Shown here in pieces: positions 6,001 to 6,815 of a stretch of 6,815 nt of DNA. Made by a program: the position numbers. The stretch is from positions 1 through 6,815 of the IMG/VR virus record IMGVR_UViG_2737471819_000003. The stretch is one strand, 5' to 3'. Position 1 is the first letter of the stretch. Every line of letters begins with the position of its first letter. Origin of the DNA: a virus (Duplodnaviria; Heunggongvirae; Uroviricota; Caudoviricetes).

Positions 6001-6815
6001 TTGCAACCAACCAGCACCCTGAGATTATATCAGGGTTAGAAGGTGAGCTAATAAACATCAGAGAGAGTACGGCGACTCTATCTGTAAAAAAAATATCCGA
6101 AATAATGGACTACATAGAAGCATATTGTGCCATGAACTCAATTCATCTTAGCGAATGGAGGAATTATGATTGAGGTTTGGGTAGATATCGAAGGGATTCC
6201 ATTTTATCAGGTTAGCAATAAAGGAAATTTCAGGTCTATTACGAGGGAAGTTACAGTAACATCAACCAGACAGAGGCCATATAAGAAAATAATTAATGGC
6301 ACTAGTGTAAAACCATTCAAGTGCAAGTCGACAGGATATCTTCAAATAAAGGTATACGGTAAGAAATACAGCGCCCACAGGATAGTTGCGAAAGCATTCT
6401 GTACAGGGTTCTGTGATGGCTTGGTAGTTAATCACAAAAATGGGCGAAGAGATGACAATAGGGCTGATAACCTTGAATGGGTATCACATTCTGAAAACTC
6501 AAAACACGGATATAAACAAAATGGAAGAATACCTATATCGCTAGGTAAATTTAGTGGTGACCATCCTGCCAGTAAAGCTGTTATTTCTACTGACATGAAA
6601 ACTGGGGAGGAGGTTTATTATGAAGCAGCTATGGATGCTGTCAGAGAAGGATTTGATAGTTCGTCAATTAGTCGTTGCTGTAATGGCGAAAGCTCATATC
6701 ACAAAGGAAGATTCTGGCGATTTGCAAATGAAAAAATGAAAGCGCGATGGGGAGATCGGGCTGCATGACTATCAAATCAAATACGCCAGCACACAACAAG
6801 GACTGCTGGCAAACG

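Follow-up and report, generated by a model that had tools for sequence, protein, structure and literature searches.

A divergent ninB segment, an HNH endonuclease gene and a displaced ninB tail in the early-right region of a lambdoid phage

The ninB–HNH–dam locus

The window, meaning the whole 6,815-nucleotide stretch of DNA that was analysed, covers positions 1 to 6,815 of the Caudoviricetes record IMGVR_UViG_2737471819_000003 and represents the early-right region of a lambdoid phage. It encodes cII, a replication-initiator-like helix-turn-helix (HTH) protein, a primase/helicase, small open reading frames (ORFs), ninB, an HNH endonuclease and the start of dam. The subject of this work is the ninB gene and the HNH gene that overlaps its end. 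Across 5600–6815 the window is 99.9% identical to many Stx-converting phages, for example phi345, P27, Stx2 phage 86 and dozens of Stx2a prophages, and the public records of those phages already label the two genes 'NinB' and 'HNH endonuclease'. A first-pass annotation had read the locus as an HNH homing endonuclease gene inserted into the 3' end of ninB and fused in frame to the displaced ninB tail. On re-reading of the sequence, its coordinates and sequences for ninB, the HNH ORF, the GGAGG and the tail were all exact, and the stretch from SEW to KARW (6159–6738) measures 580 bp as it had given. The features of the locus are as follows.

5757–6173, plus strand: hybrid ninB (orf) gene, 138 aa, with ATG at 5757 and stop at 6171–6173; matches Pfam NinB and lambda Orf (1PC6).
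5757–5882, plus strand: ninB 5' segment common to lambda-type ninB genes, the left homology arm; DNA similarity ends exactly at 5882.
5883–6738, plus strand: mobile cassette, comprising foreign ninB codons 43–138 and the HNH gene body; GC content 0.39.
5883–6158, plus strand: divergent 'clade-2' ninB segment travelling with the HNH gene; in phages found only together with the HNH gene.
6157–6173, plus strand: Shine–Dalgarno (SD) sequence GGAGG (6157–6161), HNH ATG (6166) and ninB stop (6171–6173); reads W-RNYD* in the ninB frame.
6166–6768, plus strand: HNH endonuclease ORF, 200 aa; core residues 1–186 (6166–6723) I-HmuI-like.
HNH ORF residues 187–191 (ANEKM), plus strand: the family's own end, with residues 192–200 being the ninB tail.
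6739–6768, plus strand: displaced lambda-type ninB tail KARWGDRAA (6739–6765) and TGA (6766–6768) in the HNH frame, the right homology arm.
6765–6815, plus strand: start of the dam methyltransferase gene, following the annotation of phi345, P27, SfI and mEp506; its ATG (6765–6767) overlaps the HNH stop as ATGA.

The ninB ORF ends ...NSIHLSEW, with the W codon at 6156–6158, and then RNYD*, and the codons of W-RNYD* double as the translation start region of the HNH gene. The HNH gene is a separate ORF in its own reading frame, overlapping the end of ninB by 8 nt and the start of dam by 4 nt. As first described, it stops on the old ninB stop, which still overlaps the ATG of the next gene. A promoter scan of the window found no promoter-like site on the plus strand before the HNH gene.

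I-HmuI is a nicking HNH homing endonuclease of Bacillus phage SPO1, and the homing-endonuclease identity first assigned to the HNH gene product was borne out by Pfam, phmmer and Foldseek as that of an I-HmuI-type homologue. The protein contains a NUMOD4 domain (residues 3–63; 51.3 bits against a cut-off of 23.4, E 1.4e-13) and an HNH_3 domain (residues 69–112; 43.5 bits against a cut-off of 24.8, E 2.4e-11). The I-HmuI_NUMOD-like domain scored 19.2 bits, under its cut-off of 27 (E 9e-4), and the alignments to 1U3E still extend to residue 170 of 174 of I-HmuI. This structure was the sole PDB match (phmmer 3.7e-14, query 55–186 against I-HmuI 36–170 of 174; Foldseek 3.3e-11), at 29% identity. 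The HNH motif VVNH90KNG...DN102LEW...SEN111 aligns with VVDHKDG...NLRW of 1U3E, and H90, N102 and N111 are invariant in 33 relatives; from published I-HmuI work we take H90 to be the catalytic histidine and the motif asparagines to be metal-binding. Cysteines occur only at positions 53, 79, 83, 171 and 172 and form no CxxC or CxxH motif. The conserved core of the nuclease ends at W184-R185-F186, after which the ends are variable. An AlphaFold2 model had a pLDDT of 88 with low confidence in one linker and in the last ten residues, the tail region (residues 191–200) being modelled as a low-confidence helix with a mean pLDDT of 60. A terminase-associated HNH protein was ruled out, as the gene lies in the nin region and not the packaging region, and a location within an intein or intron was ruled out, as the HNH gene is a separate ORF.

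Block replacement and the displaced ninB tail

Relative to lambda-type alleles that lack the HNH gene, DNA similarity of the window is limited to 5754–5882 and 6738–6815. A block of ~855 bp (5883–6737) is present in the window, against 284 bp of lambda-type ninB in the HNH-less phages SfI and mEp506 and the HNH-less metagenomic locus L242. The last of these is 97.7% identical to the window over 5308–5882 and then continues with the 284 bp of lambda-type ninB up to the tail. The 5' segment of ninB (5757–5882) has 82–93% DNA identity to lambda, SfI, mEp506 and L241 and 97.7% to L242, and the left switch falls within ~60 bp (5822–5882) that are near-invariant across all ninB types. Base composition follows the same borders. 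The first-pass annotation had described the insertion as AT-rich, and the GC content of 6159–6738 is indeed 0.386 against 0.474 upstream; the low GC content, however, spans the entire block and reaches beyond the HNH part, beginning within ninB at 5883 (0.402 for 5883–6158), where the lambda-type segment that was replaced has 0.52. The proposed insertion of ~580 bp splitting ninB between SEW and KARW does not fit, since 855 bp replaces 284 bp and similarity stops at 5882 and resumes at 6738. By these sequence comparisons, the locus is a block replacement and not a simple insertion. A terminator-like hairpin followed by a T run is situated at 5308–5331, exactly where similarity to L242 begins (5308).

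The first-pass annotation had given the end of lambda NinB as being of the KARWGDRAA type, and comparison with the lambda protein, which ends ...LALEWKARWGDRAA (equally given as ...RLALEWKARWGDRAA), confirmed this. At the DNA level, 6738–6768 is 90% identical to the 3' end of lambda ninB, and over 6738–6815 the identity to the ninB–dam junction of SfI and mEp506, in which dam directly follows ninB, is 98.7% (78 nt, E 2e-35), well outside what chance would give. Hence the HNH gene closes with nine codons and a stop that belong to a lambda-type ninB end, translated in the HNH frame, and the claim that the HNH ORF ends in a displaced ninB tail stands on this match to HNH-less alleles. Identification of the tail rests on DNA, as the NinB C-terminus profile is significant for long tails only and gave an E of just 0.018 for the nine residues of the window. 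Polymorphisms within the tail (GCGCGA/GCGAGA and GATCGG/GACAGG) pair with the same downstream gene as in HNH-less alleles, so the tail appears to be recipient-derived up to its left edge. Among near-identical cassette copies the nine residues vary (R>S, R>K, A>V). Many genes of the nin region, ninB, dam and ninC among them, terminate in ...(R)AA* on GCNGCATGA, which also contains the ATG of the following gene (L001, L004, L006, L013, L050, L052; window 6760–6768), and a junction that recurs in this way may act as a linker for recombination.

The 138-aa ORF matches the NinB domain PF05772 (137.8 bits, E 2.5e-40) and lambda Orf 1PC6 (1.4e-31), with window residues 1–130 facing lambda 1–126 in a profile alignment. 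Its first 42 residues are lambda-like. Codons 43–134 belong to another NinB clade, with ~25–45% amino acid identity to lambda and DNA that is not alignable, and carry the clade-2 motifs ...NARLHAMLS...FWKGLFVSGWQIAT...PGLEGEFINIRESTA... In the profile alignment to 1PC6, ...LSEW of the window faces lambda 127–130 (WSDE) and not LEW at 135–137. Lambda residues 131–137 (ARLALEW) have no counterpart in the window, and residues 138–146 are now located on the HNH ORF. The alignment ends at lambda 126–130 and the C-terminal helix of lambda Orf, with W137, is absent from the window NinB. In lambda Orf this helix, W137 included, contributes to DNA binding. Many NinBs of the family are short and lack the helix, so it is not universal. 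At the positions of the lambda Orf channel residues R41, Q45, N46, K48 and W50, the window NinB has R41, Q45, N46, R48 and H50, and position 50 is W or H across the family (PMC4118853). Since the tail DNA is 90–100% identical to lambda-type tails while the ninB body of the cassette cannot be aligned with lambda DNA, the body and tail of this ninB have different histories.

Distribution and relatives of the ninB–HNH pair

Among the loci compared, the ~855-bp block is 98.5–100% identical across at least 17 distinct flank combinations. The 126 bp of ninB adjoining the block are 100, 96, 81–86 or 37% identical and represent three kinds of N-terminus, and the gene after the tail is of four kinds (dam, ninE-like, ninC-like or ninD-like). 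The block was found in 77 of 5426 complete Escherichia coli genomes, always whole and chromosomal, compared with 1307 genomes carrying the lambda-type ninB segment, and ~95% of comparable E. coli prophage loci are without the cassette. Megablast found no partial cassettes in the 5426 genomes, the ninB part and the HNH gene occurring together in 77 of 77. The flank-sharing L242, SfI and mEp506 lack the HNH gene and define a presence/absence polymorphism. In 50,697 phage records, a tblastn search with the 96-aa divergent, clade-2 part of NinB matched 63 records at 99% or above and SEN22 at 85%, with all others below 60%, and found no clade-2 ninB without an HNH gene. A search of 5.8 billion proteins gave an HNH gene beside all NinB relatives of at least 56% identity whose context was read, and a single-sequence scan of genome contigs yielded only three distant alphaproteobacterial loci. 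The uninterrupted allele of this ninB type that an insertion would call for was thus found in none of the close relatives in the phage records and E. coli genomes, and where a recent event in this phage had been implied, the arrangement is old and widespread.

Decayed cassettes are also present, with IS5 in the HNH gene (L020), a truncation (L135) or frameshifts (P0124, P0127). In the IMG/VR prophage L020, an insertion of ~1.2 kb (~3424–4622) interrupts the HNH gene behind codon ~46 and encodes a 326-aa transposase, presumably IS5 InsH. L042 and L043 are cassettes with an intact HNH gene and a frameshifted ninB (~2875–3222) ending ...VKKYPK*.

The same pair occurs in Salmonella phage SEN22 at 77% DNA identity, where NinB ends SEWRNYE* and the HNH protein ends ...ADERMAA*, exactly seven codons shorter than that of the window and overlapping ninD. 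SEN22 also has a second, unrelated small 'HNH endonuclease' gene in its nin region, between ninF and rusA (L003 2939–3220). An HNH_3 gene starting 8–20 nt before the ninB stop was further found in a Yersinia kristensenii prophage (62% NinB identity to the window; HNH protein ending ...GKVAA*), L139 (69%), L009 and L010 (65–67%) and L084 (56%). Every NinB at least 56% identical to that of the window has an overlapping HNH_3 gene, of at least three HNH types, and these relatives come from Salmonella, Yersinia and metagenomes. In L009 (2910–3461), L010 (2910–3458) and L045 (3287–3745) the same spot is taken by HNH_3 nucleases of another type, which lack NUMOD4 and show a weak AP2-like domain, and the L009 and L010 nucleases end ...QAIDWARRFGETKRAA, a NinB-like tail of ~16–20 residues. 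The arrangement of W-R-x-Y-D/E, SD and ATG recurs in SEN22, L139, L010, L138, Yersinia and L084. The NinB end beside these nucleases always encodes an SD and an ATG (TGGAGG..TATGA, GGAGGTAGATATGA and similar), and a Pantoea NinB runs eight codons into the 5' end of its HNH gene, out of frame. RNYD* and the GGAGG had been ascribed to an insertion in this phage; the same arrangement exists, however, in HNH-bearing relatives at 56–86% NinB identity. The RNYD* end is tied to the nuclease start region and travels with the block, so it was not made in this phage.

HNH relatives of 45–77% identity are numerous in prophages of Enterobacterales, Pseudomonas, Aeromonas and others. Of 26 distinct loci with an HNH protein at least 43% identical, 18 have a ninB-family gene that ends where the HNH gene begins, and several NinB clades are involved. 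NinB-like tails on these relatives range from ~2 to 25 residues and reach an E of 5e-6 with the NinB C-terminus profile. The nucleases end ...SDASRLEIEWATRWGKS in L160, ...FGTEHGVKWADEAKAA in L245, ...AHAFGTQRGVEWSPTSLGRAA in L243, ...AAEHGVRWSEYRRADA in L158 and ...ERGVVWSDRARQEIVDDWESA in L188, many others end simply ...AA, and every variant seen ends on a stop/start junction with the next gene. In L245, L158 and L243 the tail duplicates the upstream ninB end in diverged form, as expected if a donor brings its own ninB end and the resident end is pushed downstream. More distant NinBs without an HNH gene behind them (L119, L124, L126, L128, L129 and L132; 40–42% identical) end ...FTDRRYD*. 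The codons of DRRYD* in this group, GAC AGG AGG TAC/TAT GAT TGA, fit a relic of an HNH start site equally well, and the ending was dropped as proof of a native clade end; it is either the native end of the clade or the relic of a lost HNH start site.

These relatives bear directly on the insertion first proposed, by which a ninB of this type originally had the end ...SEW-KARWGDRAA* until an HNH element of ~580 bp entered between W and K, bringing its own SD and ATG and so creating the RNYD* tail. The L160 NinB shares ...SKW and then diverges, with VILS* in place of RNYD*, which would put the breakpoint just after the W codon. The residues following the W are set by the HNH start region, or in Pantoea by the out-of-frame HNH 5' end, and one clade-2 NinB with no known HNH gene (P0021) ends ...KKWSARWGA*. 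A native clade-2 ninB ending ...SEWKARWGDRAA, with body and tail equally diverged, would run counter to a block replacement. What was observed instead is a tail that follows lambda-type polymorphisms beside a ninB body unalignable with lambda DNA. The SEW of the window faces lambda 128–130, leaving seven residues missing, and in L160 and L010 the NinB W is accompanied by another W within the longer tail. The duplicated ends of L245, L158 and L243 do not arise by simple insertion, close relatives offer no HNH-less allele of this ninB type, and the more distant HNH-less NinBs end ...DRRYD* (no scan of the DNA behind them for remnants of a ninB tail was made). It is mainly the different histories of tail and body and the duplicated ends on which this explanation fails, and we regard it as unlikely for the present locus; a simple insertion may have been the very first event in some ancestor.

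Selection on the pair was assessed by the Nei–Gojobori method. Against the SEN22, L139 and Yersinia copies, dN was 0.14, 0.22 and 0.27 for the HNH gene and 0.08, 0.15 and 0.22 for the ninB part; dS was saturated for both, so only dN and a qualitative conclusion on selection are usable. On this basis the coding sequences indicate that the ninB part and the HNH gene are under purifying selection and have co-diverged. Such co-divergence would also be compatible with the nuclease being a working partner of NinB, in a two-gene version of the Gram-positive NinB–HNH fusions (DUF968; PhiNM1 Gp16), in which the nuclease nicks, NinB helps to turn nicks into recombination and the tail could be functional. 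NinB–HNH fusion proteins do exist, one of them a RecA-dependent nuclease (PMC2034487, PMC4118853, PMC12817073), the pairing recurs with several NinB clades, and tails of 15–25 residues are kept in several lineages. The NUMOD4, HNH_3 and I-HmuI-like architecture is nevertheless that of the site-specific homing type and lacks the zinc-finger HNH (CxxC...CxxH) of DUF968. Furthermore, the great majority of comparable E. coli prophage loci do without the HNH gene, inactivated copies persist, and different HNH types sit at the same spot beside closely related NinBs. The tail, for its part, varies in length from one lineage to another, tolerates substitutions in its nine-residue form and is modelled at low confidence. 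A dedicated partnership is accordingly a quite improbable account of the locus.

The HNH gene might alternatively be a passenger without a present role in its own spread, the block moving by ordinary lambdoid homologous exchange at conserved junctions. The common ...RAA* endings of nin genes, with GCNGCATGA overlapping the next ATG, would offer such junctions, and the conserved 60-bp stretch and 30-bp tail are enough for Red-type recombination. Against this, the nuclease keeps its catalytic residues, dN/dS stays well below 1 even across deep divergence, the block varies much less than the sequences on either side of it, and the recipient-type tail persists as far as the junction. We consider a purely passive role unlikely.

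A probable homing cassette with its own ninB allele and its relation to known systems

The locus probably represents a homing-endonuclease cassette of the free-standing kind, which brought along its own ninB allele and left the tail of the recipient ninB fused in frame to the nuclease. What the sequences show is how the block is built and bordered, where the tail comes from, that a near-identical block occurs in varied backgrounds, that the ninB–HNH pairing is deeply conserved, and that the nuclease is under purifying selection with its catalytic residues intact. Cleavage, the target site and nuclease-driven inheritance are what we infer from these. The enzyme would nick or cut HNH-less lambda-type ninB, most likely near ...LEW/KARW..., and the putative target region on lambda-type ninB–dam (SfI, mEp506, lambda) would be ...CTGGCTCTSGARTGG/AAAGCGMGATGGGGAGA... 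Repair from a cassette-bearing co-infecting phage or prophage would then drive spread by intronless homing, with co-conversion of the ninB segment. As homology exists only in the 5' end of ninB (~60–126 bp) and in the 30-bp tail, the whole block would be copied in, the linked ninB allele presumably being too different to serve as a target or as a recombination partner. On entry of the cassette, the middle 284 bp of the resident ninB would be lost and the incoming allele would supply a complete, shorter NinB. The last nine codons of the recipient would be left at the 3' end of the nuclease ORF, in frame with it, with the consequence that the nuclease stops on the old ninB stop and the ATGA overlap is kept. 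The in-frame tail may thus be retained for translational coupling and as a homology arm, rather than for enzyme activity.

Several points weigh against the cassette explanation. Cleavage and homing are predictions from sequence, and some close HNH relatives lie behind genes other than ninB (L159, L176, L180, L188; for example in a P. aeruginosa prophage). A ninB pairing that outlasts synonymous saturation could reflect a function shared with NinB, and the block could be disseminated by ordinary lambdoid module exchange at GCNGCATGA-type junctions, with no need for an active nuclease. Few loci, chiefly L136, speak for a break at the left edge of the tail, and the survey of tails favours those in frame, since remnants out of frame are invisible in protein sequences. 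A further conceivable scenario, which we rate as very improbable, is a ninB-specialised I-HmuI-like lineage in which the captured NinB helix tethers the nickase to single-stranded DNA, to single-stranded DNA-binding protein or to NinB, forming a two-gene recombination-initiation module; if true, this would explain why the pair has stayed together past synonymous saturation.

As a homing cassette, the block would represent a known way for such genes to spread and not a new kind of system, and both of its genes are already annotated. A full-text literature search found no published account of the ninB-tail fusion or of the cassette. The explanation would account for an abrupt mosaic joint that many lambdoid prophages, both Stx-converting and other, have in their early-right operon, and would suggest that homing-endonuclease-type cassettes operate in temperate enterobacterial phages too, beyond T-even or Gram-positive lytic phages. 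It would also indicate how an invader can spare an operon, by bringing a replacement for the gene it disrupts and by ending on the stop/start overlap of the host gene. For annotation this means that the nine C-terminal residues of what is labelled 'HNH endonuclease' belong to NinB, and the NinB of these phages is a hybrid without the C-terminal helix known from studies of lambda Orf. The putative target, the 3' end of lambda-type ninB, is open to direct test.

Two other features of the window were noted upstream. The 968-aa primase/helicase (2106–5012; Toprim_2 ... AAA_25) contains a 341-aa intein (~3222–4244) with Hint and LAGLIDADG_3 domains, bordered by ...GHGKA/CPLNEP... and ...VATHN/TEVV at the P-loop, which makes it a second homing-endonuclease-type element in the window. 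Phage phi345 (L002) and others with identical ninB–HNH–dam carry lambda-type O and P where the window (1246–5012) has the HTH protein and the intein-bearing primase/helicase, a difference that, on sequence comparison, is another mosaic joint.

With I-HmuI the nuclease shares an HNH_3 catalytic core, a NUMOD-type N-terminal module and, probably, a C-terminal DNA-binding part. I-HmuI is encoded in a group I intron of a DNA polymerase gene, whereas the present gene is free-standing, lies at a junction of coding genes, occurs in temperate enterobacterial phages and has a nine-residue appendix derived from the host gene; its activity is predicted. The free-standing T4 HNH enzyme MobE is likewise promoterless, nicks the neighbouring gene of phages that lack mobE and is inherited with its flanks (PMC2790892). 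As for T4 SegF and MobE, the gene described here is located at or between conserved genes, is promoterless and would depend on upstream transcription, is variably present and is co-inherited with a segment of the flanking gene. It differs from them in residing in temperate lambdoid phages and prophages, in a co-inherited part that comprises 92 highly divergent codons of the neighbour, and in a nuclease ORF that ends in the leftover 3' end of the recipient gene, homing being in this case a prediction.

NinB–HNH fusions (DUF968; S. aureus phage PhiNM1 Gp16) resemble the pair in combining a NinB-fold mediator with an HNH nuclease in the replication/recombination region of a phage. Those fusions are single polypeptides with a zinc-finger HNH, while in the window a stop separates two ORFs that are read in different frames, and the HNH is of the I-HmuI type. 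The closest structural analogy is found in fungal mitochondria, in endonuclease elements that sit at gene 3' ends (Allomyces atp6, Ophiostoma rps3, Phlebia atp6/cox2), which bring or displace alternative or duplicated C-termini (PMC4019555). As in those elements, a replacement C-terminal segment is brought in and the resident end is pushed downstream, both here and in L245, L158 and L243. The fungal elements belong to the LAGLIDADG and GIY-YIG families, reside in organelle genomes and often involve introns; at the ninB locus, by contrast, the displaced end is translated as the C-terminus of the nuclease and the stop/start overlap of the operon is preserved.

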